Positions 3,056-63,721 of a DNA stretch of 64,000 nucleotides are shown here, piece after piece. Within the stretch, counting starts at the first letter, position 1, and each line of letters begins with the position of its first letter. Source of the stretch: Alphaproteobacteria bacterium (lineage in GTDB: Bacteria > Pseudomonadota > Alphaproteobacteria > Rs-D84); NCBI GenBank assembly GCA_015062485.1, contig SUUO01000003.1:28026-92025 (forward strand), written 5' to 3'. The notes beneath the pieces were generated by a model that saw nothing but the letters and a program-made list of their open reading frames with translations, was not told where the DNA came from and did not search any database. The position numbers and the translations under genes were made by a program.

Positions 3056-3082
3056 AAAATCCCGCATTATGCGGGATTTTTT
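3054..3082. terminator. bidirectional intrinsic terminator
   Basis: AAAAAAT-CCCGCA tta TGCGGG-ATTTTTT between convergent rpiB and 3082..3834. Confidence 0.85.
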
Positions 3083-3834
3083 CATTCGTTACACGGCGCG
3101 CTGTACAGATATGTACCAACGTCATCAGAATATACATTCCCCGCGCGCGAATAAAGCCAGCACGTCCCCAGGGCAGCATCACTTAGATGCGTTACTTCTT
3201 CGCACGCTGGCGCCGTCCTCAAACTCGTCCTACACGTTCCGTATGACGACGCGTCATAGTCCCTAAAAATCAAGCCCTGGCGTTCAATTGCAAGCCCACC
3301 AAGTCCAGACGGCGCCTCGTCTGGGAACATCTGGTCTTCTATGTCACTGCCACGATATGTCATCCATTTGTTCATTTCTGTAAAAAGATACACACCAAGA
3401 GTTTGCTTCTCTAATATGCTAGCTTTGCACGCATATGCGCAATTATACATACATGAATCCAAATCAGCGCTTGTATCCGCCCCCGTTTTTTCTGGAAACC
3501 ACTGTGTCGCATATGGGCGTATCATTTTACACCAACAATAATTACCCGTTTGTGTGGGCGCCGCAAGATGTTTTGCAAATGTACCCATACTTGTGAATCT
3601 CGTCGACGAACACGCTGAAATTATTCTGGCATCTGTAAGATATGTATTTACAGAACCAGCAACCGTGAAACTATGATGCGACGGCCAAATCAATTCTCCA
3701 ACTGTATAAGTGTCATTTGCCGTCCAACCAAATGCCGTACTCCCAAGAAAATCGGCCCCAATTGACACTTGGGTAATCGATGCCGCAAATGCGGGTTCTA
3801 ATACCAACATATATAATATAAATATTTTCTTCAT
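3082..3834 (-). CDS. secreted Cys-rich protein, fused L-domain + S-domain
   Basis: Signal peptide MKKIFILYMLVLEPAFA. L signature: NYCWCKM..QW..DSCMYNCAYAC. C-terminal S signature: CWLYSRAGNVYSDDVGTYLYSAPC. GGGGGG RBS. 10 Cys in the mature part. Confidence 0.85.
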   Translation of the reverse strand: MKKIFILYMLVLEPAFAASITQVSIGADFLGSTAFGWTANDTYTVGELIWPSHHSFTVAGSVNTYLTDARIISACSSTRFTSMGTFAKHLAAPTQTGNYCWCKMIRPYATQWFPEKTGADTSADLDSCMYNCAYACKASILEKQTLGVYLFTEMNKWMTYRGSDIEDQMFPDEAPSGLGGLAIERQGLIFRDYDASSYGTCRTSLRTAPACEEVTHLSDAALGTCWLYSRAGNVYSDDVGTYLYSAPCNE

Positions 3835-4331: not shown

Positions 4332-4628
4332 TTTCCTTTCTCCTGTTGTTATCAATCCAACGCACCCGCGTCAGATAATCAAAAACCACCATTCATCAGG
4401 TGGTCAGGAGGTTGGAAACAATCATCGGAATTGTGTCGCTTATTCAATATATTCGCAACCCTCCTGACGACAAATATCAGGAGTTTAAATTTACCGTCCG
4501 CAAGACAGATATCCATTGCGAACGCCGATGCACGGGTTTCCACACCCCATTATGACAAAAACCGCCATAACAAGTATATTATAGCGAATTCTTTCAACTT
4601 AGGCAAATACTAAGATAAATAAAAATTA
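4332..4628 (-). promoter_or_regulatory. leader module copy 1 (promoter + conserved structured 5' leader, shortened variant)
   Basis: Read on - strand: -35 TTGCCT (4601-4606), 17-nt spacer, -10 TATAAT (4578-4583). A/T motif at 4613-4628. Key 7-mers 4413-4419 (tGGAAac) and 4536-4542 (gtTTCCa). Lacks the internal T1 hairpin. Confidence 0.75.
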
Positions 4629-11686: not shown

Positions 11687-11938
11687 ATGAGCAAAAAAAT
11701 CACCTGTAACGGTTGCAACAAATGCTGTGCACTTGGTGCTGCACCGATAAAAAACAACTATGTACTGGATATAGAAAAGCAATACTATATCCCAACCATT
11801 AACGGCGAAATTATCACCGCCTATATCGAAAACGGCGAACAGAAAAATATCAATCTGTGCGAAACTGTCGAAAAGGCGATTGAAGCGGCCCAGCGGGTTT
11901 CTTGCTTCTGTTGTTATCATACACAAAATGTGAAATAG
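11687..11938 (+). CDS. hypothetical small Cys-containing protein
   Basis: RBS AAAGGA. 83 aa with CNGCNKCC and CFCC clusters. Followed by hairpin ACACCGCC/GGCGGTGT. Confidence 0.55.
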   Translation: MSKKITCNGCNKCCALGAAPIKNNYVLDIEKQYYIPTINGEIITAYIENGEQKNINLCETVEKAIEAAQRVSCFCCYHTQNVK

Positions 11939-11975: not shown

Positions 11976-12297
11976 GTGTTATTATTTATTTTTATTATTG
12001 TATTTTTTCTCTATACATTTTATAATCACGGTGTCAGCGGGATTTTCCACTGATGGGGTGTCAGAACCCGTGCATAACGCGTTTGGAATCGAAATCCAGC
12101 GCGCCATTGGCGTGTTTTTTCGTGTATTTTCCAAACGATAAACAAAAAAACTCCTGAACACACATAGGTGTCAGGAGGGTTGCGAATATATTGAATAAGC
12201 ACACAATTCGTTATGATTGTTCTGAACCTCCTGACCACTCGTTTATGCGCGGTGGTTTTTGTTTTTTCGCGAAGAACAAAGAAAGGGAGTGATACAT
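11976..12297 (+). promoter_or_regulatory. leader module copy 2 (only + strand copy)
   Basis: -35 TTGTAT 11998-12003, 17-nt spacer, -10 TATAAT 12021-12026. Key 7-mers 12061-12067 (tCAGAac) and 12219-12225 (gtTCTGa). T1 hairpin GCGCC att GGCGTG + T6. Confidence 0.8.
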
Positions 12298-12759
12298 ATG
12301 AAAAAACTTTTAACTTTAACCGCGGTTGGTGCGTTACTTGCCACACCCGCGAATGCAGTCCAAAAATGCGTACAGTTGCCCACAAAAGGCTCAGAGTGTT
12401 CTTTTAGCAACAGCTCTTTCAGCATTGAAATACCCATAAGCTGCAGTGCTGCTGGGATATCTATGAAGGCTATAGCGTTGTGTGCTTCTGCTTATGCTGA
12501 CAAAGGAGGTACGGTATCAGCAGGCTTAGTCGCAAACACAATAGATGGGGAAACTATGTCTTATGGTCCCTACTATTGTTGGTGCAAACTTGTTCAGCCG
12601 GTTGAATCAAAGTGGGTATTGGCTTCTAGTACAAGCGACGACGATTTCAGTTCCTGTTCTTATTCATGCTCCCAAAAATGCGCCAAAGCGATGCGGGCCC
12701 CTAAAGATGTTGAACTTAATATCTGGCCAATAATGCTGGAAAATTTATTAGTTGATTAA
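12298..12759 (+). CDS. secreted Cys-rich L-family protein
   Basis: MKKLLTLTAVGALLATPANA signal peptide. YYCWCKLVQPVESKWVL ... SSCSYSCSQKC. 9 Cys in the mature part. Confidence 0.9.
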   Translation: MKKLLTLTAVGALLATPANAVQKCVQLPTKGSECSFSNSSFSIEIPISCSAAGISMKAIALCASAYADKGGTVSAGLVANTIDGETMSYGPYYCWCKLVQPVESKWVLASSTSDDDFSSCSYSCSQKCAKAMRAPKDVELNIWPIMLENLLVD

Positions 12760-12769
12760 GGTGGCGGAT

Positions 12770-13042
12770 ATGAAACGAATTATATTTTTATTGGTGTGTA
12801 TGCCAGGGTTGGCGCACGCCGCCGCCCCCAGTACCACCTGTCCATCTGGATACATCGCTATAAACGAACCTGCCATTACAATTGCAACCACGTGCCCCAG
12901 TGGCACAACCGCCATTGGCACGGCGGAATCGTGTTTGGAGTCCAGCCCATCTGGGGATTGTATAATGTACGCGCCGGCGGGCGTCAGTTACACCGACAGT
13001 CCCGGCACATATGAATTTACCGAACCGTGTGCGATGCAGTAA
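12770..13042 (+). CDS. secreted Cys-rich S-family protein
   Basis: RBS AAGGTGG. Signal peptide, then AAAPSTTCPSGYIAI ... CIMYAPAGVSYTDSPGTYEFTEPC. 5 Cys in the mature part. Confidence 0.9.
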   Translation: MKRIIFLLVCMPGLAHAAAPSTTCPSGYIAINEPAITIATTCPSGTTAIGTAESCLESSPSGDCIMYAPAGVSYTDSPGTYEFTEPCAMQ

Positions 13043-13067: not shown

Positions 13068-13834
13068 AATCAGGCAGGAACAGGGCCTATCCCCCCCCTG
13101 AATACAGTATTCTTGTCACATATCTCATTTCTCACAAAAATCCCCCAACCCGGGGGATTTTTTGCAATTTTTACCGCCCCACCGACCGTTTTTCGCCCGC
13201 AAACCCGCAGAAATCCGCCATTTTTTGCATTTTTAGCACCAGAATAGGGGACAAAACCCCAATTTTCGGCCATTTTTGACATTTTCACCATACAAATCCA
13301 CCCACATCCGAATATCAAGAAAAACACAAACCCAGATACAAAAACAGCACTAAAAAAGTACACTTTATAAAAAACACTTAAATTTATTTATAAATCTATA
13401 AACAAAATGATATTTTTATTATTTAATAAATAATTTTAATTTTTTCCGCAACAAAACCGCGCGGCGCACCACAGACAAAAAACAGATCGATTTTCACCGC
13501 ACCGGGCACAGAATTATACGCCATAAAATTTTCATCGCCACCAGAATCAAACAACATAACGCCAGGGCCACACAAACACACCAATCGCGCCACAGGGCGC
13601 AGAATTCCGCCAATCACACAATTATACGTTCATCGCGCTGAAAATCGATTAAGACATACCACCGACACACACCAAGCGGAATAACACCCGCCATAATCAC
13701 AATCATCGGCCCCAGGACAGATATAAATCAGCATAATTATCGGATATTACGCATACACACGCACATTTCCGCTATTCTTCTATACTAAACTATACATAAT
13801 ATAAATTATGCGCCTTTTATATATCTCTGTTCCC

Positions 13835-16480: not shown

Positions 16481-16506
16481 AAAAACGCCCGATTGGGCGT
16501 TTTTTT
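16479..16506. terminator. bidirectional intrinsic terminator
   Basis: A-run-CGCCC gatt GGGCG-T-run between convergent genes. Confidence 0.85.
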
Positions 16507-17242
16507 AATCCAACTTAAAACAGCCTGAACGCAACTCCCTGGCACGACGGCGCAGTTTTCGAAAAATCCGTGTATTGCGCGCCATTTTAAATGCCATTGT
16601 CATCGGGGTTATTGGCTGACTAATCCTGGTATACATACTGGCTTTGCGAATACGCTGTAATGAATCCAGATATGAATCTATAAAATCATACGGTTTGTTG
16701 TGCCGCAATATATAACGACATTGACGCATTATCACACGATAACGCCGATATGCCGCAACACGGATTTGTCGCAATTGATTATCCGGAATTCGCACCGGCG
16801 TCACAATCCACACGTCACGCAACAAAGAATAATGCGAACCATACATACAATCCTTGTGCAGGGGATTACACACATCACGACAATCAACCAGTTTTATATC
16901 AACCCCGCGACCAAATATTGATATATTAAACATACGCATCCACGCCCATTTTAATGCACGCAAAATTGTCCCTTCGTCCCCCGGCATTGTTGCGCGCAAA
17001 CGTGACAAATCCGCCACAATACAGACATCAACATCACTGAATTTATCCCAGTAATAATTTGTTATTGATCCGTGGATAAAAATATCCACAACATCAGATT
17101 TATCAATCGGCAATTTTGCAACCACCGACAAATATCGCACAAATTCCCAAACCGCCATTTGCAACGTCTGGTTAACCAACGGATTTAAATGCACGCGCGA
17201 TTCCCACACCCGCGGCACCAGGGCCCTGTGATACACGAACAT
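16505..17242 (-). CDS. Pol-beta-superfamily nucleotidyltransferase-like protein (paralog 1)
   Basis: IHGSITNYYWDKFSDVDVCIVAD fits the hG[GS]-x(9-13)-DhD NTase signature. About half of residues are identical to 44340..45074. ATG 17242 sits 10 nt after the S-gene stop with a GGGGG RBS. ORF 16505..17515 trimmed. Confidence 0.7.
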   Translation of the reverse strand: MFVYHRALVPRVWESRVHLNPLVNQTLQMAVWEFVRYLSVVAKLPIDKSDVVDIFIHGSITNYYWDKFSDVDVCIVADLSRLRATMPGDEGTILRALKWAWMRMFNISIFGRGVDIKLVDCRDVCNPLHKDCMYGSHYSLLRDVWIVTPVRIPDNQLRQIRVAAYRRYRVIMRQCRYILRHNKPYDFIDSYLDSLQRIRKASMYTRISQPITPMTMAFKMARNTRIFRKLRRRARELRSGCFKLD

Positions 17243-17252
17243 ATTTTGCCCC

Positions 17253-17576
17253 CTATGACGAAGATTCTTCCATTTCACAGGCCTCGGTAAATTCGTACGT
17301 GCCAGACGCATCCGTATAAGATACGCCCGCCGGCGCATACATAAAACAATTTCCCGCAGGATTCGCCACCAGGCACGACGAAACCGTCCCCGCACTAACA
17401 TACCCCGACGGACACGACGTATTTGCCAGGATAACATCCGGCTTGCTGATTGTGATATACCCGGTGGGACATTCCGTTGCCGGCGCGGCGGCATCAGTAT
17501 TATAAATCGGCACAAAATACGACATTATAAATAATAACGTCACCCGCCAATCCGCAAAAAATATTGATTTTTTCAT
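17253..17576 (-). CDS. secreted Cys-rich S-family protein
   Basis: AAAPATECPTGYITI ... CFMYAPAGVSYTDASGTYEFTEAC. 5 Cys in the mature part. Confidence 0.85.
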   Translation of the reverse strand: MKKSIFFADWRVTLLFIMSYFVPIYNTDAAAPATECPTGYITISKPDVILANTSCPSGYVSAGTVSSCLVANPAGNCFMYAPAGVSYTDASGTYEFTEACEMEESSS

Positions 17577-18045: not shown

Positions 18046-18379
18046 TGTCTTATCTCCTTTCTGCTTTAAAAAAAAACAAAACCACACGTAAAACGGGTGG
18101 TCAGGAGGTTCGAAACAATTATAAGGAATTGTGTGCTTATTTTGTGCGGACACACCGCCCATTATTCACAACCCTCCTGACCTTTTATAGCCAGGAGACA
18201 TTTCATCCAGGACCACAAACGAAAAAACACGCCATATGGCGCGCCCGGTTCGGATATTTCGTTTTGTTCCAGACGCCTTATATCGGGTTTCGACACCCCA
18301 TCACGACCATCGATCGTAACAAGCAAATTATAACCAAATATTTCATCCAACGCAAATACTTAGATAAATAAAAGTTTAT
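18046..18379 (-). promoter_or_regulatory. leader module copy 3
   Basis: Read on - strand: -35 TTGCGT (18350-18355), 17-nt spacer, -10 TATAAT (18327-18332). A/T motif 18362-18379. Key 7-mers 18110-18116 (tCGAAac) and 18287-18293 (gtTTCGa). Confidence 0.8.
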
Positions 18380-18556
18380 CGCAGGAAGTACAAACAGAAT
18401 TTTTTGCAAAAAAAATTCTGTCATCCCGTGGCTTGACCACGGGACCCAGGTCATATTTCCTTTTTATTTGCTTTCACCTGGATTCCGGGGTCAAGCCCCG
18501 GAATGACAAAAACGTAAAACGTTTTTGTTAAATAAACTTTTATTTTTATAAGTATT
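18362..18556. repeat. MITE-like palindromic element (copy M1) bounded by inverted AGATAAATAAAAGTTTA motifs
   Basis: Four consecutive hairpins: CAGAATTTTTTGCAAAAAAAATTCTG, CCCGTGG cttga CCACGGG, ATTCCGGGG tcaag CCCCGGAAT, ACAAAAACG taaaa CGTTTTTGT. Near-identical to 25658..25865 in reverse orientation. Confidence 0.8.
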
Positions 18557-24601: not shown

Positions 24602-24630
24602 AATTCCCCGCCGAATGGCGGGGTTTTATT
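24600..24630. terminator. bidirectional intrinsic terminator
   Basis: CCCCGCC gaat GGCGGGG with flanking A/T runs, between rnhA and the S gene. Confidence 0.8.
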
Positions 24631-24901
24631 ATGACATTGGGCACGCATCGGTGTATTCGTATGTGCCACTGTCATCGGTATACGACATACCCGCCGGCGC
24701 ATACATTATACACGACCCCGCGGGACTGGATACCAAACACGATTCCGCCACGCCTACGGAAATTGTGCCACTGGGACAACTGGTCGCGATTGTAAGATAT
24801 TCTTCATCAATCGCGATATATCCCGCGGGACACGACGTTGACGGCGCGGCGGCACGCGCCACCATTGGCACAAAACAAAATAAAAACATCAATCGTTTCA
24901 T
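24629..24901 (-). CDS. secreted Cys-rich S-family protein
   Basis: RBS AAGGAGG overlapping the L-gene stop. AAAPSTSCPAGYIAI ... CIMYAPAGMSYTDDSGTYEYTDAC. 5 Cys in the mature part. Confidence 0.9.
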   Translation of the reverse strand: MKRLMFLFCFVPMVARAAAPSTSCPAGYIAIDEEYLTIATSCPSGTISVGVAESCLVSSPAGSCIMYAPAGMSYTDDSGTYEYTDACPMS

Positions 24902-25358: not shown

Positions 25359-25674
25359 TTTCAATCTCCTTTCTTTTGTTTTATTCGCGAAAAAACAAAA
25401 ACCACACGTTTTTCACGAGTGGTCAGGAGGTTGGAAACAATCAATACGAATTGTGCTGCTTATTCAATATATTCACAGCCCCCCTGACACTAAATGCTCA
25501 GGAGATATTTGTCATTTGGTTTTCACACGAAAAAACACGCCATCGGCGCGTCGGATTTCGTTTCCAAACGCGTATTGCACGGGTTTCCACACCCCATTAT
25601 GACCATCGATCATAACAAACAAATTATAACCAAATATTTCATCCAACGCAACGACGAAGATAAATAAAAGTTTA
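25359..25674 (-). promoter_or_regulatory. leader module copy 4
   Basis: Read on - strand: -35 TTGCGT (25646-25651), 17-nt spacer, -10 TATAAT (25623-25628). A/T motif 25658-25674. Key 7-mers 25432-25438 (tGGAAac) and 25583-25589 (gtTTCCa). Confidence 0.8.
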
Positions 25675-34164: not shown

Positions 34165-34241
34165 TGGCACGCCCTACAGGATTCGAACCTGTGACCTGCA
34201 GATTAGAAATCTGATGCTCTATCCAGCTGAGCTAAGGGCGC
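34165..34241 (-). tRNA. tRNA-Arg (anticodon TCT)
   Basis: rc reads GCGCCCTTAGCTCAGCTGGATAGAGC...CAGA-TTTCTAA-TCTG...GGTTCGAATCCTGTAGGGCGTGCCA. Cloverleaf with encoded CCA. Confidence 0.95.
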
Positions 34242-42016: not shown

Positions 42017-42093
42017 TGGTCGGGGCGAAAGGATTCGAACCTTCGACATCTTGGTCCCAAACCAAGCACTCTACCAGACTGAGCTACACCCCG
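42017..42093 (-). tRNA. tRNA-Pro (anticodon TGG)
   Basis: rc reads CGGGGTGTAGCTCAGTCTGGTAGAGTGCTTGG-TTTGGGA-CCAAG...GGTTCGAATCCTTTCGCCCCGACCA. Confidence 0.95.
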
Positions 42094-44339: not shown

Positions 44340-45074
44340 CTACTTTAATTGAAATTTTCTACTGCGTTGTTCTTTGGACAATCGTCGCAATCGCCGCAAA
44401 ATACCAGTATTACGAACCATTTTAAATGCCATAGACAATGATGTTATCGGCTGTTTATACTGCGTATACATACTTTGCGTACGAATTTTTTGCAAGTTTA
44501 CCAAATACGTATCTATATATTCCGGCAACATCTTCTGGCGCAACATAGCGTAACATTGGCGCATTATTGCGCGCTTTTTTACATATGCCGCCCGACGTAT
44601 TGTACGCAATTCCGATGCACTTAATCGAACAGGCGTATTAACCCAACAATCATTCACCAAAGAATACGATGGCCCAACACATTTATATCTTTCATCAAAA
44701 CCGTCATTGATATCGACTATACTTAAATCGACGCTACGACCATACAGCGAAAACCAAAACGTACGTTTCCACGTATGTTTTAGTGAATTTGTTATTACCG
44801 TAACATCTGTCCCATTCAGCATACTGCGCACACGCGACAAATCCGCAACAATACGTAAATCAATATCACTGTATTTATCCCAATAATAGTTAGTTATCGA
44901 CCCATGCACCAACGCATCTTGAATATCAGATGGCGAAATTGGCAATTTGACAACATCACCCAGATACCGCACAAATTCCCCCGCAATCATCATCAGTGAT
45001 TGTCGCACCAATGGATTTATTTTTGTCGGACTGTCCCAAACACGTGGCGCCAGCGTTTTATGATACCGAAACAT
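44340..45074 (-). CDS. Pol-beta-superfamily nucleotidyltransferase-like protein (paralog 2)
   Basis: VHGSITNYYWDKYSDIDLRIVAD. Collinear with 16505..17242. ATG is 11 nt after the upstream stop. Confidence 0.7.
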   Translation of the reverse strand: MFRYHKTLAPRVWDSPTKINPLVRQSLMMIAGEFVRYLGDVVKLPISPSDIQDALVHGSITNYYWDKYSDIDLRIVADLSRVRSMLNGTDVTVITNSLKHTWKRTFWFSLYGRSVDLSIVDINDGFDERYKCVGPSYSLVNDCWVNTPVRLSASELRTIRRAAYVKKRAIMRQCYAMLRQKMLPEYIDTYLVNLQKIRTQSMYTQYKQPITSLSMAFKMVRNTGILRRLRRLSKEQRSRKFQLK

Positions 45075-45085
45075 CCCATCCGCCC

Positions 45086-45631
45086 CTATTCTGTTGTTGT
45101 GGTTGAAGACGCTTCCTCTTCACCAGCGTAGGTCTTATAACTATTTTCTACGGGCGAAGATGTTGCGCCATCATAATAACAATTATCGGTAAAAATAAAT
45201 GTTCCCGTTTCATCAGAACGCTCAACATCTGCTTTCTTATAACATTCGTTTGCACTGACCGCACCTGTATCACTAGTATATTGAGCAGGGCAACTGGAAC
45301 AACTTCCGCCATTATTATACTGCCCACTATCACACGGCCGGCAAGAGTCGTGATACCATCTAAACAGATACCGTCCATTTGCCCAATATGATTGACATGT
45401 AGATTTTCTTAATTTTGTCGGATCATCTGGACAAAGACAATCGATATATCCGTTTGTACCCGTATAAAAATCTTCTGTCCTTGTTGCGCTAATGCAGTAT
45501 GAATCAGCATAAATTGCGGTGTCCCCTTCCCAACATCTAATTTTTACCGTCGTTGTTTCAAACGCGAAAGACTTTGAATATCCCAATGTCATCATCGCCG
45601 TAAAACCCGCCACGAAATAAGTTTTATTCAT
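45086..45631 (-). CDS. secreted Cys-rich protein with GCC2_GCC3/ephrin-receptor-like Cys repeat and S-type C-terminal motif
   Basis: Signal peptide. CRPCDSGQYNNGGSCSSCPAQYTSDTGAVSANEC. ...DETGTFIFTDNCYY. Acidic/Ser-Thr tail. Confidence 0.8.
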   Translation of the reverse strand: MNKTYFVAGFTAMMTLGYSKSFAFETTTVKIRCWEGDTAIYADSYCISATRTEDFYTGTNGYIDCLCPDDPTKLRKSTCQSYWANGRYLFRWYHDSCRPCDSGQYNNGGSCSSCPAQYTSDTGAVSANECYKKADVERSDETGTFIFTDNCYYDGATSSPVENSYKTYAGEEEASSTTTTE

Positions 45632-45934
45632 ATTTCAATCTCCTGTTTGTTAAAAACAAAACCACGCGTTTTTCACGAGTGGTCAGGAGGTTGGAAACAA
45701 TCAAGAAGTATTGTGCTGCTTATTCAATATATTCACAGCCCCCCTGACACTAAATGCTCAGGAGATATTTGTCATTTGGTTTTCACACGAAAAAACACGC
45801 CATTGGCGCGTCGGATTTCGTTTCCAAACGCTTCTTGCACGGGTTTCCACACCCCATTATGGCAAACCACCATAACAAGTATATTATAACTGAATGTTTT
45901 TCTTTGTTCAATACTTAGATAAATAAAAGTTTAT
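45632..45934 (-). promoter_or_regulatory. leader module copy 5
   Basis: Read on - strand: -35 TTGAAC (45906-45911), 17-nt spacer, -10 TATAAT (45883-45888). A/T motif 45917-45934. Key 7-mers 45692-45698 (tGGAAac) and 45843-45849 (gtTTCCa). Differs from copy 4 at only about ten positions over ~190 nt by eye. Confidence 0.8.
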
Positions 45935-47957: not shown

Positions 47958-47987
47958 CAAAAAAATCCCCCATTTGGGGGATTTTTT
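47958..47987. terminator. bidirectional intrinsic terminator
   Basis: A8-ATCCCCC attt GGGGGAT-T6 between ssb and 47986..48912. Confidence 0.85.
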
Positions 47988-48912
47988 AATCAATAGTGTA
48001 ATGACACATTCCACCGCCCGATATATATGTACCATATTCATCTTTAAATGTACCAGATTCCCCACCGCCAACATCAACATAACAATCGGTTGGATTTATT
48101 GCACCGGGTGCACTGGTCGCATTTTCCGGCGAAACATCGTGATCACCCGGTAATGCATTGCACGCCATATTACCACCAGAAACAGTCATCGTTTCCACAT
48201 CCACCCTAACTTTGATTCCACCTGGGCAATAATCACCAGGTACACATTGCTCTTCCAATAGTTCCCCCGTATTCGTATCAATAGTTACATAATATCCAGA
48301 ATTAGAATATCCATAACAATCGCTTATCTCTGTGCGCGCACCATCAGAATGTATCAAAATTGGATGAAGCTCGTCGCACGGCACCACAATCCCATACATA
48401 TAAATATAACCATCTGGCAGACCTCCTGAAAAATCTGCACAAACATTCAATGCTTCGTCCATTGTTTCAAACCACATTCCGTTTTCAAATTCATCCTCTG
48501 TCGCGGGGATCCGTACAAGCACATAACCTTCATTACATTCCCCCATTGCTCTAAAACCAATAATCTGGCCATTAGTATCAAAATACGTAACAACATAATA
48601 GTTTCCTTTCTCGTCATAAAAATAACGAGACAAAGTAAGATCTTGACACTGTTCCAAACTTGTTAGCCCATTATTCACAAAGACATCACACGCGAATTGC
48701 CCATAATCAACATCACAAGAATCTTGATATTGCGTATTATCCTCGGGACACGGCTTGCATTCTGTTGCATCAGGCACATCATTATACGTATGTCCCGGAC
48801 ACGGCTCACACACACCAGACGACGTAACATAATAACCAACACCACATATTTCGGCATATCCTGGTGCGGTAAAAGCAAATAATAATAAAACCGTAAAACA
48901 AATCTTTTTCAT
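47986..48912 (-). CDS. secreted Cys-rich protein with ephrin-receptor-like Cys repeats and S-type C-terminal motif
   Basis: Signal peptide MKKICFTVLLLFAFTAPGYA. CGVGYYVTSSGVCEPCPGHTYNDVPDATECKPCPEDN. C-terminal GTFKDEYGTYISGGGMCHY. Confidence 0.8.
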   Translation of the reverse strand: MKKICFTVLLLFAFTAPGYAEICGVGYYVTSSGVCEPCPGHTYNDVPDATECKPCPEDNTQYQDSCDVDYGQFACDVFVNNGLTSLEQCQDLTLSRYFYDEKGNYYVVTYFDTNGQIIGFRAMGECNEGYVLVRIPATEDEFENGMWFETMDEALNVCADFSGGLPDGYIYMYGIVVPCDELHPILIHSDGARTEISDCYGYSNSGYYVTIDTNTGELLEEQCVPGDYCPGGIKVRVDVETMTVSGGNMACNALPGDHDVSPENATSAPGAINPTDCYVDVGGGESGTFKDEYGTYISGGGMCHYTID

Positions 48913-49226
48913 TTTTGTCTTTCTCCTGTTTGTTATAAAAAACAAAACCACCGCGCATAAACGAAGTGGTCAGGAGGTTCAGAACAATCAAGAAGAATTG
49001 TGTGCTTATTCAATATATTCGCAACCCTCCTGACACCTATGTGTTCAGGAGTTTTTATTTATCGTTTGGAAAGTACACGAAAAAACACGCCACCGGCGTG
49101 CCGGATTTCGATTCCAAACGCTTCTTGCACGGGTTCTGACACCCCATTATGGCAAAACCACCATAACATACTAATTATAACCGATTGTTTCCATTTGCGC
49201 AAATACTTATAGAAATAAAAGTTTAT
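48913..49226 (-). promoter_or_regulatory. leader module copy 6
   Basis: Read on - strand: -35 TTGCGC (49197-49202), 17-nt spacer, -10 TATAAT (49174-49179). A/T motif 49209-49226. Key 7-mers 48979-48985 (tCAGAac) and 49133-49139 (gtTCTGa). T1 hairpin CACGCC ggt GGCGTG + U6 at 49080-49100. Confidence 0.8.
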
Positions 49227-49268: not shown

Positions 49269-49298
49269 AAAAAACCCGCCGGATGGCGGGATTTTTTT
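49269..49298 (-). terminator. intrinsic terminator after autotransporter gene
   Basis: CCCGCC ggat GGCGGG with flanking A5/T7 runs. Confidence 0.85.
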
Positions 49299-52200
49299 AG
49301 AACCTATACGATCCAGAAACCTTGATATTATGCAACTGCATATCATTATTGTACTGATATCTGTAATCAATACCAAATTGCAGGCCATTTGCAGACAAGA
49401 ATTCAAATCCACCACCAATATTTGCCCACAATGGATCGATTTCTATGTCATATTCGCTGAACACGTTGGCCGATGCAAATTTATATTTCGCAAAATCTGG
49501 CGCACCCAACACATCATATTCAACACCAATTGTCGCATATGGTCTAATCTGGAACCAAGCCGACGGATAAATACGTTTCTGGGCGGTCAAAGAATACCCC
49601 GGCGTCAACATCAAATATCCATCGGATTCAAAATCCATATAATTTTCACCGGCGGCCTTTTCCGTCACATCAAAGCCAAAGTTATAACCCGCGCGCGCAT
49701 ACAAGTTACCAACGACATACTGATTTAACCAATCGTGCATCAGGCCCCATTCCGTCGTCAATGCAAACGCAGTACCCGTTCCATCAATCGTATCCATAAA
49801 TGTCATATGGCGCGTTGTATCAATAAAGTGCATATCCATAAACGCATTACCATACAGGCGGAACTTATGCCCCAACGTCTTCATCAAATATGCCCCCAGG
49901 CCAACATTCGTATCCGCCACATCCACAGATACATTGCCGACAATATTCTGGCCCGGTAAATAGCCCAAATCCATATCATCCGCGTTATCTGATGACATAT
50001 GCGACACACGTCCCGTCAGCCCCAGAATCAATGTATCAGATGACTGCCAATCAAAACCACCCGACAATTCAAAGCGATTACCATACACACGCTTGTCATC
50101 GGTGACATTCTGGCTAAACATACCGAAATCAAAATCCGCCCAGGCTTTCTTTAAATTCCGGTTACGATTCCAGATAAATTCATCAAACATTCTGTCTTCG
50201 AAATTACGGAACGATGTATGTTCATTCAACGCGATTGCGCCCGCAATTTGTTCAATTTCACGTGGCTGAACCAGGCGACTGAACGGCACAAACGCAGCAC
50301 CATTTGCCGTTTCAACGTAATGTTCCATACGGTTGTAAAGTTCCGTCATCAGCGTTTCAACATTTGTACCCTCAAAAATCGCCGGTATAACTTCTATTGG
50401 TGATTTATTAAAGAATCCCATATTCAACAACTGCCCCGCGATAAGGTTATCCAGTGCACCGGCGGCGACATATTCGCCCGCGGTGTATTCTGGCTGGCGT
50501 GCGACAATTGGCTGAATCCGATTATCTTCAATCAAAACCGGCCCACCAAAGCGCGGATCAAACACGACGTAAAGGCTGTCTGCGGCACCACTGTTATCTG
50601 TATCACGCGTTGTGATATAAGCCCCCAAATTGTCCGGATTTAGCGCAACGCACGTCGTATTACCCGCATTACAGAACAACACATTCAAATTACGGATTTT
50701 TTCAATATCACTAAATTCAGATAACCCCTGCTCTGCCTTTAATAACCATATCGCCGTTTCCGCGGATACATTGGACACATCCGTAAAACGCAATCCAATT
50801 TGGCCATCGGCCAAAACATCCGAATTCAGCGCCAACGCACTATATTCCGTCCCAGACATAAACTTGCCATTAACCTGAATCAACGCCGCACCATCGGTCG
50901 CATTTGTAATTTGCCCCAATGTCGCATCATTATTCAAACTGACCGACGACCAATAATTGCGCGTGGTCGAATTAAGGCCCGGCGTTACATTATATGGTAA
51001 TATCGCCGCCAATAACTGACTGTTTGCATCAAATATATAATCACCATCAACCGCCATTTGTTCCAGATTCCAAATCTTGGTTCCGCCAGAGATATTTCCA
51101 TTAACCTCTAAATCCAACCAATTTGTATCCGGATTTGCGGCAATTGTTAAATCCGTCGCATTTATATCGCCATTAACCGTAACATCACTGCTTAAAATCT
51201 GCATAGCGCCAGATGTCTGATTGATTCCCGCGACCGTAACATTCGATGCCGTAATCGTATAATCATCGGCGGTGATTCCGATATCATTATCACGCAAAGT
51301 TCCCGTATAATTCTGATATAAATTGCCGTCCGTTGTTAATTCAGAATCCAATGTCCAGCCCGCGCCATATAACTGAATTGTGCCGCCATCCACAACCAAT
51401 CCAGCCATATCAACAATGTCATCCCCCGAATCCAGGGACACAGAGCCACTATTGCTAAGTGTCGCCATTGTGATGCCGTGCGCGGCATCCAATACCAATG
51501 CACCACTGTTTATAATATTATCAAATGATACTGCATCCGAACTGTCTAACTTGAACGCGGCATAATTGCGGAAAGTATACAAATTATCCACGTCCCCACT
51601 AATGTTATTAAATGTTTCACCAATGAAATTAACCGTCGCCAGTGATACAGATGTGCCAACCGTCATATCGCCATCAATTGTAATATCCCCAGAAATATCA
51701 TACGTTCCAACATTCGAATCGGCAACGAATCCACCGGCGGTCAATCCCGTGGAACTAAATACAACCTCGTCCGACAGTATGTTTAACATCCCCGTCTTGC
51801 CCGTTCCCTGGTTCAAGACGCCCGCAACATTAACCGCGCCACCAAATGTTGCCCCATTCAAAGCATTTAAATTAAATGTACCACCGGTAATATCCATACC
51901 ATATTGCACATCCAACAGATTCGCATCTATATCCGTCAATGCACCCGCAGATTCAATCGCCGTCGCATAAACATCGCCAACCGCATCGATATCTAATTCA
52001 TACGCGGTCGCACCATTTTTCAAAATACCAATATTGATATCATCCCCAGAATTTAAAATAACATACCCATTATTTGTGACATCGGCCAAATCAATCCCGG
52101 CGGCCTTAATATCAAGCCACCCCGCAACAGTCATATCATCAACGATATCAACGTCACCGACCGCGTCTATATCCAAATATCCATTTGGCGCAACCGCCCC

Positions 52201-54627
52201 AGTAATTTGAATATTACGTCCAGAATTCAAATTCAAACGATTACTTTGCCCCAAATTAATCCCACCAAAGATATCTATATCCTTGTCCGTCGCCTGGGAC
52301 ACCAATGAAAACTCAGACGTTCCACCAACAATCAGTCCCCGATTCGCATCATCGGTATCATCAAATGTGATACCACTTTGAATCGATACCCCACCCGTGG
52401 CAACATCCACATTAACCGCATTAACCGTATTAGAATCATTACCATAGACATAAATTGTCCCATTATCCTCGGTCAGGGAATCCACCGACACATCCGTACT
52501 GTGAATTTCAACAGTACCACCTTCCGACGCCAACAAATCCCCACCAATTGTCAAATCGGCCGTTCCCGCCGCATCATTGACAAGGGACAATGGCGTTGGA
52601 AGCGGCCGCCCCTGAAAAACAATGCGATTGGCCGCGCCAGTCGCCGTAACATCACCACCAATATTGAATGATGTTGCCATAAAATTCAACGTACGCGCCG
52701 TTGTCCCCGCGGTGGTTGCCAAAACATCACCACCAACATTTACCGCACCATTTACATCAAATTGGAAGCCCATCGGTCCATATGCCGTTACATAAATATC
52801 CCCATCACCGGTGGTCGCACCTGTGGCGTTTGCCACAACATCACCGCCCACATTCATCACATATCCGTTATTATCGGCCGGTCCACCAACTGTCAAACTG
52901 TGCGTACCAGAACCAATATTTAAAACACCACCGGTAACATTTAATGTACCCGTACCAAATGTATTTTCATCAACCATACTCTGTGCGATATCAATTCCCA
53001 ACAAGCCATTCAGATACGCCGTACCCCCGGCAACATTCACACCGCCCAGTTTAATAGAACTGCCCTGAAAATCAGAACCATCGATTGTTAAATCACTATA
53101 ATTATTTGTAACATTGCCAACAATATTTATCTGACGGCCCGATATGTCTATATCACTGATGATATTCTGATTATTTCCATCAGTAATATCGCCATTAACC
53201 GTCACCAGGCCCGTTGTACCACTGGTGGCCAAGACATCCAATGTTCCACCATTTCCAACAATACCACCGACAGCAACCTGTTGCCCCTGTAATGTCATTG
53301 TACCGCTTGCCACAACATTACCCTCAACATTAACCGCACCCGATGCAATTAAATTTGTCGTTGCACTCGCCGCATCGACCACACCACTTGCGACCAAATT
53401 AGTTGTGGCCCCCAATGCCTCCAACCGCATTGTACCGGCATTATTTTTTACATTTCCAACCGTCAACCCATTCGCCGCCAAATACATATTCGCATTTGCG
53501 TTTAATGTACCATTGCTAACATCACCCGTTGAAAACGCCGAACTATCAACAACTACATCAAAGTTATTTAGATTATTCGCAAAGAATGCCGATGTATTCC
53601 CGCCCAGAACCAAGCTTCCCGTCGTTAACGAGAACGCATTGCCCCAGTCATCTTCGCTATCCACCACCAGATTAAATCCATTTGCCAGGTTCGTTTCACC
53701 CGCCACATCAATTGTTAAAATCCCCCCATTTACAAACGACGCATTATTCGCATCCCCACCATTAACCGTCAATGAATTGGCATTAACGACCATCTGACCG
53801 GCATCATTTTTCATTGTGCCATCAACAACAATATCCGCATCCGATGCATTAATCCTCATCAAGTTACCAGAATTTTCAACATTCCCCGTCGCGTTCAAGT
53901 TGCCGGCAACACCAATATCAAGTGTACCCGCCCCAGTATGAGATATATCTCCAACCTTAATATTTGTTGCGGCAATATCGATTTCTGCGCCCCCGCCCCA
54001 GATATTATTCAACTGTGCAATATTCAATGTATTCGTCGCATTCAGCACAACGGCACTGCCCGTATCTACCGTAACCGCCCCAACATTAATATTATTTGCC
54101 TGTACAGACAACGCACCCGACGTATCAATTGCCCCCGCCAGGAATTCACCATCCGTATTTGTTGTTCCCACAACAAAATTATTAACATCCGTTACGTTAA
54201 ATGTACCCGTATTGTTAATTGTAGACACCGATACATCAAATGTCGCATCATCTGTATAGTTTGAAATATTAAACGTACGCCCACCCGCAATCGTCAATGT
54301 GCCACCAATATCAACATCACCATCAGCCTGTAACGAAAACGTATCAGATACCGCATCACTGATAAACAATGTTCCGCCGGCCTGCTGTGGGATTGGCGTC
54401 ACAAACACACGCATATCACCCGCCACATCCAAAGCCACACCATCGGTCAAGCCGGCCCCATATATCTGCAACGCATTACCAGACTGTACCGCCTTAATCT
54501 CGTCCTCTGATACCGTCACCGTTGTGGCATTAACATTTGGCACATCCGTTACCGGTATATTTTCCGTCGCAGCAAATGCGCCAAACGGCACAAAACCGCA
54601 TATAAAAGCAAGTAATTTCTTTAACAT
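49297..54627 (-). CDS. giant autotransporter (1776 aa): repetitive beta-helical passenger + C-terminal beta-barrel
   Basis: Signal peptide MLKKLLAFICGFVPFGAFA. Long Gly/Asn/Thr/Val-rich degenerate repeats. C-terminal barrel ending ...KVSGSYRF. Confidence 0.9.
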   Translation of the reverse strand: MLKKLLAFICGFVPFGAFAATENIPVTDVPNVNATTVTVSEDEIKAVQSGNALQIYGAGLTDGVALDVAGDMRVFVTPIPQQAGGTLFISDAVSDTFSLQADGDVDIGGTLTIAGGRTFNISNYTDDATFDVSVSTINNTGTFNVTDVNNFVVGTTNTDGEFLAGAIDTSGALSVQANNINVGAVTVDTGSAVVLNATNTLNIAQLNNIWGGGAEIDIAATNIKVGDISHTGAGTLDIGVAGNLNATGNVENSGNLMRINASDADIVVDGTMKNDAGQMVVNANSLTVNGGDANNASFVNGGILTIDVAGETNLANGFNLVVDSEDDWGNAFSLTTGSLVLGGNTSAFFANNLNNFDVVVDSSAFSTGDVSNGTLNANANMYLAANGLTVGNVKNNAGTMRLEALGATTNLVASGVVDAASATTNLIASGAVNVEGNVVASGTMTLQGQQVAVGGIVGNGGTLDVLATSGTTGLVTVNGDITDGNNQNIISDIDISGRQINIVGNVTNNYSDLTIDGSDFQGSSIKLGGVNVAGGTAYLNGLLGIDIAQSMVDENTFGTGTLNVTGGVLNIGSGTHSLTVGGPADNNGYVMNVGGDVVANATGATTGDGDIYVTAYGPMGFQFDVNGAVNVGGDVLATTAGTTARTLNFMATSFNIGGDVTATGAANRIVFQGRPLPTPLSLVNDAAGTADLTIGGDLLASEGGTVEIHSTDVSVDSLTEDNGTIYVYGNDSNTVNAVNVDVATGGVSIQSGITFDDTDDANRGLIVGGTSEFSLVSQATDKDIDIFGGINLGQSNRLNLNSGRNIQITGAVAPNGYLDIDAVGDVDIVDDMTVAGWLDIKAAGIDLADVTNNGYVILNSGDDINIGILKNGATAYELDIDAVGDVYATAIESAGALTDIDANLLDVQYGMDITGGTFNLNALNGATFGGAVNVAGVLNQGTGKTGMLNILSDEVVFSSTGLTAGGFVADSNVGTYDISGDITIDGDMTVGTSVSLATVNFIGETFNNISGDVDNLYTFRNYAAFKLDSSDAVSFDNIINSGALVLDAAHGITMATLSNSGSVSLDSGDDIVDMAGLVVDGGTIQLYGAGWTLDSELTTDGNLYQNYTGTLRDNDIGITADDYTITASNVTVAGINQTSGAMQILSSDVTVNGDINATDLTIAANPDTNWLDLEVNGNISGGTKIWNLEQMAVDGDYIFDANSQLLAAILPYNVTPGLNSTTRNYWSSVSLNNDATLGQITNATDGAALIQVNGKFMSGTEYSALALNSDVLADGQIGLRFTDVSNVSAETAIWLLKAEQGLSEFSDIEKIRNLNVLFCNAGNTTCVALNPDNLGAYITTRDTDNSGAADSLYVVFDPRFGGPVLIEDNRIQPIVARQPEYTAGEYVAAGALDNLIAGQLLNMGFFNKSPIEVIPAIFEGTNVETLMTELYNRMEHYVETANGAAFVPFSRLVQPREIEQIAGAIALNEHTSFRNFEDRMFDEFIWNRNRNLKKAWADFDFGMFSQNVTDDKRVYGNRFELSGGFDWQSSDTLILGLTGRVSHMSSDNADDMDLGYLPGQNIVGNVSVDVADTNVGLGAYLMKTLGHKFRLYGNAFMDMHFIDTTRHMTFMDTIDGTGTAFALTTEWGLMHDWLNQYVVGNLYARAGYNFGFDVTEKAAGENYMDFESDGYLMLTPGYSLTAQKRIYPSAWFQIRPYATIGVEYDVLGAPDFAKYKFASANVFSEYDIEIDPLWANIGGGFEFLSANGLQFGIDYRYQYNNDMQLHNIKVSGSYRF

Positions 54628-56316: not shown

Positions 56317-56586
56317 TTAGGTCAGCGGACACGATGCGGTATATTCATACGTTCCTTTTTCGTCTGTAAAACTCATACCGGCGGGAACATACATCCAACA
56401 CCCATTTGTCGCATTGGTCAAACACGATGTTAGTGTACCGGTCGAAACATAGCCAGCAGAACAGGCATCCGATAAAATAAAATCAGAACGCGTAACCGCG
56501 ACATACCCCGACGGACACGATGTCGACGGCGCCGCAGCGTATGCACACATAGGTATAAACGCAATTATAATTGCTATTTTTTTCAT
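56317..56586 (-). CDS. secreted Cys-rich S-family protein
   Basis: ATG 56586 with RBS AGGGGTG. AAAPSTSCPSGYVAV ... CWMYVPAGMSFTDEKGTYEYTASC. 5 Cys in the mature part. Confidence 0.88.
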   Translation of the reverse strand: MKKIAIIIAFIPMCAYAAAPSTSCPSGYVAVTRSDFILSDACSAGYVSTGTLTSCLTNATNGCWMYVPAGMSFTDEKGTYEYTASCPLT

Positions 56587-57037: not shown

Positions 57038-57356
57038 TTGTTTACTCCTTTTCTTGTTTTTCGCGAAAAAACAAAAACCACCGCGCAAAACGAAGTGGTC
57101 AGGAGGTTAGTAACAATCTCTAAGTATTGTGTGCTTATTCAATATATTCGCAACCCTCCTGACCAGTAAGATTCAGGAGTTTTTTTATTTAACGTTCGGG
57201 TTCAGATACGAAAAAACACGCCATCGGCGCGCCGGATTTCGCTTCCAAACGCTTAGAGCACGGGTTACTACACCCCATTATGGCAAACCGCCATAACACA
57301 CGTATTATAACCGATTGTTTCCATTTGCGCAATTGCAATGATAAATAAAAGTTTAT
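57038..57356 (-). promoter_or_regulatory. leader module copy 7
   Basis: Read on - strand: -35 TTGCGC (57327-57332), 17-nt spacer, -10 TATAAT (57304-57309). A/T motif 57340-57356. Key 7-mers 57108-57114 (tAGTAac) and 57264-57270 (gtTACTa). Confidence 0.8.
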
Positions 57357-57389
57357 CTAAGTGATTAATAGTATCCGACACTCACCACT

Positions 57390-58097: not shown

Positions 58098-58643
58098 TTA
58101 TCTTATTATACGTCGCGGTGCACTGGTACGACGTATTGCAGAACCACGAACCTGTTCCACGGTCTTTTTCTCTTCACGGCAATCCCAAACGCCATCCGCG
58201 CCCAAGAACGCCGTCTGTCCCGCGGGGCACGTATGCTCTTCCACACGCCACGTAAAACAAGACCCCTTTTGATATGATTGATATGCGCTTTCTGGGTTAT
58301 ACGTGCCACGCACATAGATTCCGTGTTCCGCATCCCAGGTACCCGGCACCTGACCCGCGCACCACTTTCGTTCACCCCAACAGGTCACAGATTTTCCGCC
58401 AACCTCTAATTCATACGCCACGGACGTTGCCTTGTACCCACTGTTTGGGGTGTCGCCCCGCCCCATTGGTTTACCCGTTTCCAAATCAACGCACCATAAT
58501 TTCTGGCATTCGGCCGCATCCAGACCATCTATTTTTTTATGAGATGCCAAGACATAACCCGGCCCACACGTAAATTCCGCCGCGAACGCATCAACGGTAA
58601 ACAAACATAAAATCAGTAAAAACATTCTCTTCATATCAAACAT
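58098..58643 (-). CDS. secreted Cys-rich protein (distinct subtype, CGPGY start)
   Basis: Signal peptide, then AEFTCGPGYVL..., WCVD, CWGERKWC, CPAGQTAF. Terminator GCCCC/GGGGC at 58066-58090. No leader module upstream. Confidence 0.7.
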   Translation of the reverse strand: MFDMKRMFLLILCLFTVDAFAAEFTCGPGYVLASHKKIDGLDAAECQKLWCVDLETGKPMGRGDTPNSGYKATSVAYELEVGGKSVTCWGERKWCAGQVPGTWDAEHGIYVRGTYNPESAYQSYQKGSCFTWRVEEHTCPAGQTAFLGADGVWDCREEKKTVEQVRGSAIRRTSAPRRIIR

Positions 58644-62716: not shown

Positions 62717-62746
62717 ATAAAATCCCCCATTTGGGGGGGATTTTTA
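62717..62746 (-). terminator. intrinsic terminator
   Basis: ATCCCCC attt GGGGGGGAT with flanking A/T runs, downstream of 62744..63721. Confidence 0.8.
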
Positions 62747-63721
62747 TAACAACGGGTTGATAACATTACACTCTAATGCGTTATATAGCCCGGTTCCAAT
62801 TCGAAAATTTGATGAACAGTCACTGGCACAATTGTTGTTGCAGTTTGCAATCATTGTTGCGTCGGTGGAGCTCCAATAATAAAACGTTTCCAAATACGCG
62901 CATTTTCCACCCGTACAGCACCAACAATAATAACCCTCGGTCGAACTGGGGGTACCCTGGGTATTTACTGTCCCACTGGTTTCGGAGCATAGGCCGGTCA
63001 CGGTATTACTACTGCAGCCCTTGAAGTTGCAGACACCAGCGTGCCTATATGTACCAGAAGTATCATTAAAAGCTCGGGCAGGTTTAAGGAAACAATCGTT
63101 TTCATTGTTTCCATTGCCGGCCCCCAATTCACCGCGTCTCCCCTCGCTATCATCGGGACACGCTGTGCAACCACTGCATCCCACAGACACTCTATCAGAA
63201 CACGTAGCAGTACCATAATACTGATAATCACACTTATATGTAGTACTTGTACTGCACAGACCTGTTGCTGTATTACAGGTATGTGTTACTGACTTTACAT
63301 ACCCCTGTGCCGGACTGGAGGTCGTATTTTCGCCACAGTCACTATCACTGGTACACCCAGTCGGGTTTACAGGTCCAATGACGCTACTACCACAAGTTTG
63401 ATATGTAATTGTGCCACAACCATACGCACTGGCGTCTATTGTTGTATCAGTTAGCGTAAAACCAGCCTTGCACCCGGTACAATATCCAACATAAAATGGG
63501 TCTTGTCCCGTCTTGGTTGGCGAAAACATAACATAACCTCGTGCCGTACAAATCGTGGATGCGGGCAACGTGGTAATACTTGTCGCGCCCGATGGCAAAG
63601 ATATATATGGCCCCCCCACGGCACACAGACCCGTCGAAGACGGTATTGCCGCCACGGCAGATACGGATATAAACAGCCCCATCACCACCGCCGCAACCAA
63701 ACCGACGTTTAGATTCGGCAC
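62744..63721 (-). CDS. secreted Cys-rich protein, S-like region followed by L-domain (reverse-order fusion)
   Basis: Hydrophobic N-terminus. ...FNDTSGTYRHAGVC..., then GYYCWCC ... W ... ANCNNNCASDC (C-x3-C-x3-C). GTG start as in the ORF track; the true start is uncertain. Confidence 0.7.
   Translation of the reverse strand: MPNLNVGLVAAVVMGLFISVSAVAAIPSSTGLCAVGGPYISLPSGATSITTLPASTICTARGYVMFSPTKTGQDPFYVGYCTGCKAGFTLTDTTIDASAYGCGTITYQTCGSSVIGPVNPTGCTSDSDCGENTTSSPAQGYVKSVTHTCNTATGLCSTSTTYKCDYQYYGTATCSDRVSVGCSGCTACPDDSEGRRGELGAGNGNNENDCFLKPARAFNDTSGTYRHAGVCNFKGCSSNTVTGLCSETSGTVNTQGTPSSTEGYYCWCCTGGKCAYLETFYYWSSTDATMIANCNNNCASDCSSNFRIGTGLYNALECNVINPLL

Follow-up and report, generated by a model that had tools for sequence, protein, structure and literature searches.

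Paired cysteine-rich proteins with signal peptides behind a conserved promoter and structured leader RNA in an alphaproteobacterium of the order Rs-D84

Candidatus Enterousia, a member of the order Rs-D84, has genomes of about 0.75 to 1.0 Mb without respiration and most biosynthesis, and dependence on a partner has been predicted (PMC12306168). Here, we report two-gene cassettes that encode a longer (L) and a shorter (S) cysteine-rich protein, together with the promoter and leader RNA that precede them, in 64,000 nucleotides (nt) of an Rs-D84 genome (Alphaproteobacteria bacterium, GenBank assembly GCA_015062485.1, contig SUUO01000003.1, positions 28,026 to 92,025 of the forward strand). This whole stretch is called the window, and coordinates count from its first nucleotide.

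The window was surveyed by a six-frame motif scan and lists of open reading frames (ORFs), and motifs were taken from alignments. The survey recovered four L+S pairs, all of them described in an earlier note made from the sequence alone. L1 (12298-12759, plus strand; 153 amino acids [aa], Sec signal peptide) is followed by S1 (12770-13042, plus; 90 aa, signal peptide) and by a terminator-like hairpin (13136-13162, plus). The other pairs are L2 (17599-18045, minus; 148 aa) with S2 (17253-17576, minus; 107 aa, C-terminal tail EMEESSS), L3 (24912-25358, minus; 148 aa) with S3 (24629-24901, minus; 90 aa), and L4 (56597-57037, minus; 146 aa) with S4 (56317-56586, minus; 89 aa). In all four pairs the mature L has 9 Cys and the mature S has 5, as the note had counted; among homologues, L has 9 in 57/71 and 7 in 10/71, and S has 5 in 121/121. 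The shared motifs listed in the note were likewise seen in the scan and alignments: a near-invariant signal peptide, MKK(L/I)LTLTAVGA, among window L proteins; the L signature (Y/A)CWC...SKW...C-x3-C-x3-C; and, in S, AAAPST.CPSGY, a second CPSG, and C.MYAPAG.SYTD..GTYE(F/Y)T..C. The signal peptides are of Sec type, with cleavage between ...PANA and VQKC in L and between ...LAHA and AAPST in S.

Six relatives that the note had placed at 3082, 3855, 45086, 47986, 58098, and 62744 were also recovered. One is L5 (3855-4331, minus; 158 aa, 9 mature Cys), a divergent L. Two are single-chain members, at 47986-48912 (minus; 308 aa, C-terminal ..GTY....C motif) and 45086-45631 (minus; 181 aa, 11 Cys, S-like C-terminal module, tail ...EEEASSTTTTE). 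A Cys-rich secreted relative lies at 58098-58643 (minus) and a protein with 27 Cys at 62744-63721 (minus), neither with a leader detected by nhmmer. The latter ends in an L-type domain (YYCWC...C-x3-C-x3-C), which is also C-terminal in larger proteins such as those at L105 and L106 (labels of the form L0xx, L1xx, and P0xxx denote loci or proteins from other metagenome-assembled genomes [MAGs] or metagenome contigs and are distinct from window genes L1 to L5). The sixth ORF (3082-3834, minus; 250 aa) does belong to the family but is more than a relative: alignments identify it as a natural L-S fusion, with the L signature in its N-terminal half (6 Cys in the L part) and about 80 final residues that align to the entire mature S (4 Cys).

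The conserved promoter and leader in front of these genes are the main new finding, and the region probably has no feature of greater importance. A conserved 5' region had been described in the note, and it is present, but it is wider than the signal peptide and takes in about 300 nt upstream of every window L start, comprising a promoter and a structured leader. Seven leader copies were found in the window with nhmmer (E < 1e-50), five before L genes and two before the single-chain genes at 47986 and 45086. In cassette 1, a sigma-70 promoter (11998-12026, plus; -35 TTGTAT, 17-nt spacer, -10 TATAAT at 12021-12026) precedes a leader at 12033-12297 (plus; nhmmer E 4e-75) that contains hairpin P0, helices H1 to H3, an a:b hairpin, a conserved loop, terminator T2 (end at 12267), and the ribosome-binding site (RBS). 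Promoter and leader together span 18046-18332 in cassette 2 (minus; leader 18046-18320, -10 18327-18332, T2 end 18068), 25359-25628 in cassette 3 (minus; leader 25359-25616, -10 25623-25628, T2 end 25390), 57038-57309 in cassette 4 (minus; leader 57038-57297, -10 57304-57309, T2 end 57066), and 4332-4583 in cassette 5 (minus; leader 4332-4571, -10 4578-4583), where part of the optional internal domain is missing. Those of the single-chain genes lie at 48913-49179 (minus; before 47986; leader 48913-49167, E 4e-66) and 45632-45888 (minus; before 45086; leader 45632-45876, E 2e-65). The promoter consensus is TTGnnn-17 nt-TATAAT (position-specific, 109 copies). A -10 element at CATAAT inside the leader was considered and dropped once this promoter and the P0 hairpin were found upstream. 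Just upstream of the -35, a palindrome (GATAAAC-N4-ATTTATC) is exact at 18363-18380 and 57340-57357, and a similar AAACTTTTATTTATC sequence lies upstream of most other window-type leader copies. This A/T-rich palindrome might act as an UP-like element or bind a transcription factor; in other species, the terminator of the upstream gene occupies the place.

The leader begins with P0 and is spanned by the long-range helix H1, formed between 5' GGGG.UGU[nnn]AAC and a GUU[nnn]AACCUC segment that follows after some 190 nt. H2 and H3 close an optional domain with a terminator-like hairpin; in hairpin H4, segment a (CUCCUGA) pairs with segment b (UCAGGAG). After H4 comes a small stem with a conserved 15-nt loop, tolerant of inserted hairpins, and the 3' end consists of the intrinsic terminator T2 (GACCAC...GUGGU plus U-run), the RBS, and the start codon. 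Covariation was measured on 108 distinct copies, with slid partners and 500 shuffles as controls. Paired cells made up 96.8% of the helices (34-53% in slid controls), double changes occurred at 23/40 pairs, and compensatory changes on both sides were counted in 539 cells (30-94 in slid controls); 0/500 shuffles reached the observed values. P0 and T2 both covary, and pair types are diverse (for example, GC:40, CG:34, AU:33, one non-pair). An invariant G.U pair places the structure in RNA, on the coding strand. The single-sequence minimum free energy (MFE) fold of the L1 leader matches the covariation structure (z = -3.6).

Segment b (GGUCAGGAGG) is complementary also to segment c (CCUCCUGACC), which overlaps 4 nt of the T2 stem. 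In a transcript truncated before the 3' half of T2, the forced b:c fold lies 2.6 kcal/mol above the MFE, and at two loci (L029 and L107) a, b, and c have changed concordantly. As far as base pairing can tell, the leader has the classic logic of terminator, antiterminator, and anti-antiterminator; a terminator before the ORF and a mutually exclusive antiterminator pairing, the generic marks of attenuators and riboswitches, are both predicted. A leader peptide was rejected: ORFs from the conserved AUG(GGG) span 7 to 43 codons without a common stop, and the AUG is replaced in 4/100 copies. Rfam 15 at gathering thresholds returned two tRNAs in the window and no leader match, and in E-value mode on 11980-12330 the best hit was isrK at 14.5 bits (gathering score 50). 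A literature search returned nothing on the L and S proteins or the leader RNA.

Related MAGs contain at least 125 nonredundant leader copies (pattern scan, then nhmmer), and the JGI metagenome set only 14 matches. Extrapolation from 7 copies per 64 kb gives about 100 per genome. The leader marks an "exported protein" regulon, since nearly all the genes it drives encode proteins with signal peptides. Most of those other than L and S encode single-chain Cys-rich proteins of 110 to 550 aa. In MAG KA0024-133, leader copies at L014, L039, L041, L074, and L098 drive a secreted protein of 67 to 71 aa with a single Cys (MRLF(I/V)FLILIFTSSASA followed by ASVASVRYVDECVATKV...); as these genes carry the leader, the regulon includes a multicopy family that is not Cys-rich.

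The expectation in the note of a variable mature L behind a conserved 5' region was borne out. Mean nucleotide identity among the four window cassettes is 77% in the leader, 84% in the L signal peptide, 61% in mature L, and 65% in mature S. In the closest cross-MAG pairs, the ratio of nonsynonymous to synonymous substitution rates (dN/dS) is 0.57-0.83 for L and 0.22-0.25 for S, and by this measure L is fast evolving and S conserved.

The partnership of L and S proposed in the note gained support from adjacency kept in other MAGs and from fusions in both orders. The 125 leader-marked cassettes of other MAGs include about 28 L-S, 3 L-L-S, 2 of L plus an LS fusion, and a few L-only or L-L; at one locus the S gene had been overlooked by the gene caller. 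L-S fusions occur in the window (3082-3834) and as L070, P0202, P0263, and P0298, and S-L fusions as P0244, P0289, P0291, P0317, P0324, P0326, and P0335. In single-chain relatives, the last ~75 residues form a module, YRC..GYYG...C..CPssGG....it.CYiP....D..GtYtyT..CyY, with which the S profile aligns (hhalign probability 96.4%, E 1e-9, against the C-terminal 5-Cys module); S thus corresponds to this module made as a separate chain, and L-S is a split form of the usual two-part architecture. From adjacency, fusions, and homology, L and S very probably act together.

L and S constitute a new sequence family, and the claim in the note that the family is unrecognized stands: Pfam, NCBIfam, and PDB-sequence searches and, for the L model, Foldseek gave no match to a characterized family. 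In Pfam nothing exceeded threshold, with only Furin-like/cEGF noise for S (top score of S1, Furin-like_2, 15.4 bits, threshold 28); NCBIfam gave only signal-peptide noise; and profile searches of PDB sequences with L and S gave E > 0.05 and no relatives. An exhaustive HMMER search with the S profile yielded 166 clusters at 50% identity among 1.84 billion representatives. L and S were folded separately, since MAFFT put S onto the L region even with signal peptides trimmed. The AlphaFold2 (AF2) model of L1, built with 71 homologues, has a predicted local distance difference test score (pLDDT) of 77 and a predicted template modeling score (pTM) of 0.72. In this model, YCWC lies in strand 92-100 of a beta-sheet, C120, C124, and C128 lie in helix 117-133, and the C terminus forms an amphipathic helix. 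A Foldseek check, which the note had suggested, gave best E values of 2 in PDB and 0.6 in BFVD with TM < 0.3, and the L model thus has no counterpart structure in either database. Every L domain, also in the S-L fusions, closes with a conserved amphipathic F(R/K)..(L/M)F..L.. motif (L1 residues 142-153), which is predicted to be helical and may mediate docking or association with a membrane.

Cysteine co-loss was mapped on 125 distinct L domains and 258 distinct S domains. In L, C34 and C49 are lost together in 18 sequences (plus 4 that also miss further Cys), C62 and C120 in 6 (plus 2 more), and C96 and C128 once. These co-losses suggest disulfides C34-C49, C62-C120, and C96-C128, leaving C94-C124 by elimination, and such bonds would staple the C-x-C strand onto the C-x3-C-x3-C helix. 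C24 (VQKC24V) is retained in 94% of L sequences and has no partner inside the L domain. In S, C55 and C64 are lost together 3 times; for C42, which is the Cys of the second CPSG, there are 11 losses without any other Cys. Where S lacks C42, a C24-less L is found in 3/4 operons: one L of L122 and the adjoining L of L125 have Tyr at position 24, and at L126 (L-L-S-S) the two L have 8 Cys (without C24) and 9 Cys, and the two S have 4 and 5. A C24-less L is found in 0/~31 operons with normal S (Fisher p ~6e-4, with operons treated as independent). The window fusion 3082-3834 has lost L-C24 and one of its two CPSG Cys, consistent with C24-C42 pairing. An inter-chain disulfide from L-C24 to S-C42 is likely on this pattern of losses.

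We consider it reasonably probable that L+S is a split operon for a Sec-exported Cys-rich protein, one of a hyperexpanded, lineage-specific, leader-controlled family of variable surface or secreted ligands. In the mechanism that we propose, the leader would attenuate transcription: pairing of b with a would let the terminator form (off), and pairing of b with c, overlapping the terminator stem, would give read-through (on) when favored by a signal. L and S would be exported by Sec and fold with four and two internal disulfides, respectively, those of S being C55-C64 and C24-C87, and would form a heterodimer after export, in most pairs probably locked by L-C24 to S-C42. L would be the fast-evolving domain on a fixed scaffold and S the conserved "base," and the hypervariable L surface could serve to contact a host or partner cell or to escape recognition by the host. 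A bolder reading, which we regard as tentative and rather doubtful, makes the leader a new signal-sensing RNA class (a riboswitch or factor-dependent antiterminator) that gates about 100 exported Cys-rich genes for a surface-protein coat, including disulfide-linked L-S heterodimers of an unseen fold.

Several observations weigh against this account. The note had taken the odd Cys counts of L and S, with their even sum, as compatible with an L-S disulfide; co-loss does support an inter-chain pair, but the parity argument is unspecific and weak, as leader-driven single-chain relatives are also mostly odd in mature Cys (42 odd, 14 even, by a crude cleavage predictor). Their totals (L006-L107) are typically 11, 15, 17, or 19. 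A Cys left unpaired looks like a trait of the family as a whole, and it may have another role. Fusion proteins are both even and odd (10, 14, 14, 13, 12, 14, 13, and 13 mature Cys). At L131 the S is without C42 and yet L-C24 is retained, few events may account for all three C24-less L, and L-L-S operons in which two 9-Cys L share one 5-Cys S are at odds with a simple 1:1 disulfide. AF2 gives a poor model of S by itself (pLDDT 63, pTM 0.30), and the three-way covariation of a, b, and c comes from one lineage only. Enterousia is also reported to lack respiratory chains (PMC12306168), which makes the source of oxidizing power for periplasmic disulfides questionable.

Four of these observations, on odd Cys in single chains, L131, L-L-S chain numbers, and the failure of S to fold with confidence alone, would also be expected if L and S were independent proteins, merely cotranscribed, with the unpaired Cys used for homodimerization, for covalent linkage to the surface of a partner, or in binding a metal. 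We think this unlikely given the fusions in both orders, the homology of S to a module normally attached in cis, and the joint loss of L-C24 and S-C42. The metabolism of the organism, an anaerobic fermenter without respiratory chains (PMC12306168) in which DsbB-type oxidation is doubtful, and the CxxC motifs in relatives bear on another possibility, that the Cys are metal ligands (Zn, Fe-S) or redox-active thiols in the periplasm of an anaerobe, with a redox or metal-handling role. Pairwise co-loss (C34/C49, C62/C120, and S-C55/C64) is, however, the signature of disulfides and not of a site with three or four ligands; hypervariable loops and the raised dN/dS of L do not suit a housekeeping redox protein; and the nearest Pfam resemblances are to extracellular disulfide-rich repeats. 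This role is accordingly improbable.

Small, secreted, Cys-rich, paired, and diversifying proteins, with an L staple of C-x-C strand and C-x3-C helix that recalls cysteine-stabilized alpha-beta (CS-alpha-beta) peptides, could also be a two-component secreted toxin or bacteriocin, or a toxin precursor, acting against competitors or a host cell. The note had mentioned toxin precursors, and no tested feature points there. No immunity or dedicated export gene lies beside any cassette, the neighbors being housekeeping genes; the signal peptides are ordinary Sec signals, not double-glycine leaders; there are dozens of paralogues per genome of < 1 Mb; and Foldseek of the L model found no toxin or defensin in PDB or BFVD. 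We rate a toxin as still less probable than a metal or redox role. Least credible of all, and very improbable, is a selfish or mobile cassette (integron-like, phage-borne, or resembling a miniature inverted-repeat transposable element), to which a conserved 5' module repeated at scattered sites with inverted-repeat segments might point. A search for a conserved 3' cassette end or mobile-element boundary found none; units stand singly between housekeeping genes on both strands and are not arrayed; the inverted segments pair as RNA (invariant G.U, compensatory changes); the leader pattern had 0 matches in 2.9 million viral contigs; and no integrase or transposase adjoins cassettes in the gene lists examined.

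The split, leader-controlled family that we favor shares traits with several known systems. The S-like module (C-x2-G-Y...C-x2-C-P-x2-G...C) resembles Ephrin_rec_like (PF07699), TNFR, and furin-like repeats: residues 39-77 of the 47986 product pass Pfam Ephrin_rec_like (27.3 bits, cutoff 23.1), and 2/17 single-chain modules match it weakly. It differs in ending D..GTY.YT..C(Y)Y and in having 5 Cys, not an even number; L and S themselves fall below the Pfam threshold, and S1, S2, L1, and L2 have no Ephrin_rec_like match. Unlike eukaryotic multirepeat receptors, the L/S family is bacterial, Sec exported, and single module; when relatives of the S-like module were sought in eukaryotes, the only matches were 7 bacterial MAG proteins. 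With the Mycoplasma Vsp/Vlp/Vsa proteins and Giardia VSPs, the family shares many paralogues in a small genome, dependence on a host or partner, and a conserved promoter, 5' untranslated region, and signal peptide before divergent mature parts, and with the Giardia VSPs also Cys-rich mature regions. However, the Vsp/Vlp lipobox [LVI][ASTVI][GAS]C is not present at L or S cleavage sites; L ends FR..LF.NL.. and S ends C(A/P)M(Q/S), without the hydrophobic C-terminal segment of Giardia VSPs; no poly-A or poly-TA tracts or invertible elements were seen; and the conserved 5' region is here a terminator-containing structured RNA, which is foreign to those systems.

Riboswitch and attenuator leaders have in common with this one a long covarying fold, a terminator directly before the RBS, and exclusive pairings of nearly equal energy, but the present leader has no Rfam match, no conserved leader peptide, and about 100 copies per genome (extrapolated). 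In the CS-alpha-beta fold of defensins and scorpion toxins, too, a C-x-C strand is linked to a C-x3-C helix (in L probably through C96-C128, deduced from co-loss, and C94-C124, deduced by elimination); in L the strand precedes the helix, which is the reverse order, the domain has ~130 aa with extra disulfides, and Foldseek gave no match. Class IIb two-peptide bacteriocins differ in having a double-glycine leader in place of a Sec signal peptide, and the exporter and immunity genes expected of them are replaced here by housekeeping neighbors. From integron cassettes and attC, the present units differ in being dispersed, with the repeat 5' of the genes, no 3' element, and strand-specific G.U pairing. 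We class the whole as a multigene family of variable exported proteins with a novel RNA element as its putative control, and the leader belongs to no described family.

Bacteria of the Enterousia/Rs-D84 group occur widely in the guts of humans and animals, with a presumed dependence on other cells. By extrapolation from the window, at least a tenth of the genes may encode an orphan exported Cys-rich family on one promoter-leader module, and this gene share and common module make the family an obvious candidate for cell-interaction machinery. The leader covaries very strongly for an unannotated bacterial RNA, and with > 100 natural variants per clade it can be tested as a new regulatory class. 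On the bolder reading of the leader given above, an obligate gut symbiont would control a variable surface coat at the RNA level, possibly selectively or in a mutually exclusive way. The L-S pair is also a test case for split versus fused disulfide-rich modules, with an L-C24/S-C42 bond predicted purely from co-loss.

A nucleotidyltransferase-like gene accompanies some cassettes. The third gene of cassette 2 (16505-17242, minus; 245 aa, without signal peptide) starts 10 nt after the S2 stop, and a paralogue with 53% identity (44340-45074, minus; 244 aa) starts 11 nt after the 45086 gene. In 5/5 occurrences (two in the window, L129 at 1515-2231, L130 at 745-1485, and L090), the gene begins 10 to 20 nt after the last family gene, and its product has a weak Pol-beta/NTP_transf_2 signature (HGSITNYYWDKYSDID). 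The protein encoded just before it always ends in an acidic Ser/Thr-rich tail (EMEESSS, EMESTSSSSSSS, ELEDCSSS, or EEEASSTTTTE), a tail that other S proteins lack. From this association, the nucleotidyltransferase-like protein may be a tail-modifying enzyme.

All L and S homologues are annotated "hypothetical protein" and come from MAGs named Alphaproteobacteria bacterium or Candidatus Enterousia. A DNA-pattern scan of GTDB species representatives matched gut MAGs only, apart from a few apparently misbinned; many are titled Candidatus Enterousia, and their hosts include roe deer, sheep, water deer, rabbit, horse, and human. The exact L1 protein is present on ENA gut-metagenome contigs with identical neighbors. 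In one ENA sample (L003 compared with L001 and L002), short ORFs replace PAP2/TlyA upstream of the L1-S1 cassette, which hints at strain-level rearrangement beside it. Window cassettes are dispersed singly, on both strands, among housekeeping genes (LeuRS, TlyA, MscL, shikimate kinase, HisRS, transketolase, UvrA, ArgRS, Rho, enolase, and PFOR). An 83-aa ORF (11687-11938, plus) immediately ahead of the L1 promoter has 9 Cys (CNGCNKCC...CFCC), no signal peptide, and no Pfam match; the matching ENA contigs have it annotated as a gene. The immediate upstream neighbor of the 47986 cassette is an ORF of 1,776 aa (49297-54627, minus), in which Pfam showed no domain at E <= 1e-5. The two tRNA genes are tRNA-Arg(TCT) (34165-34241, minus) and tRNA-Pro(TGG) (42017-42093, minus). 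GC skew is below zero in all 2-kb bins of the window (-0.01 to -0.36) and long ORFs are mostly on the minus strand, which together place the window within a single replichore.

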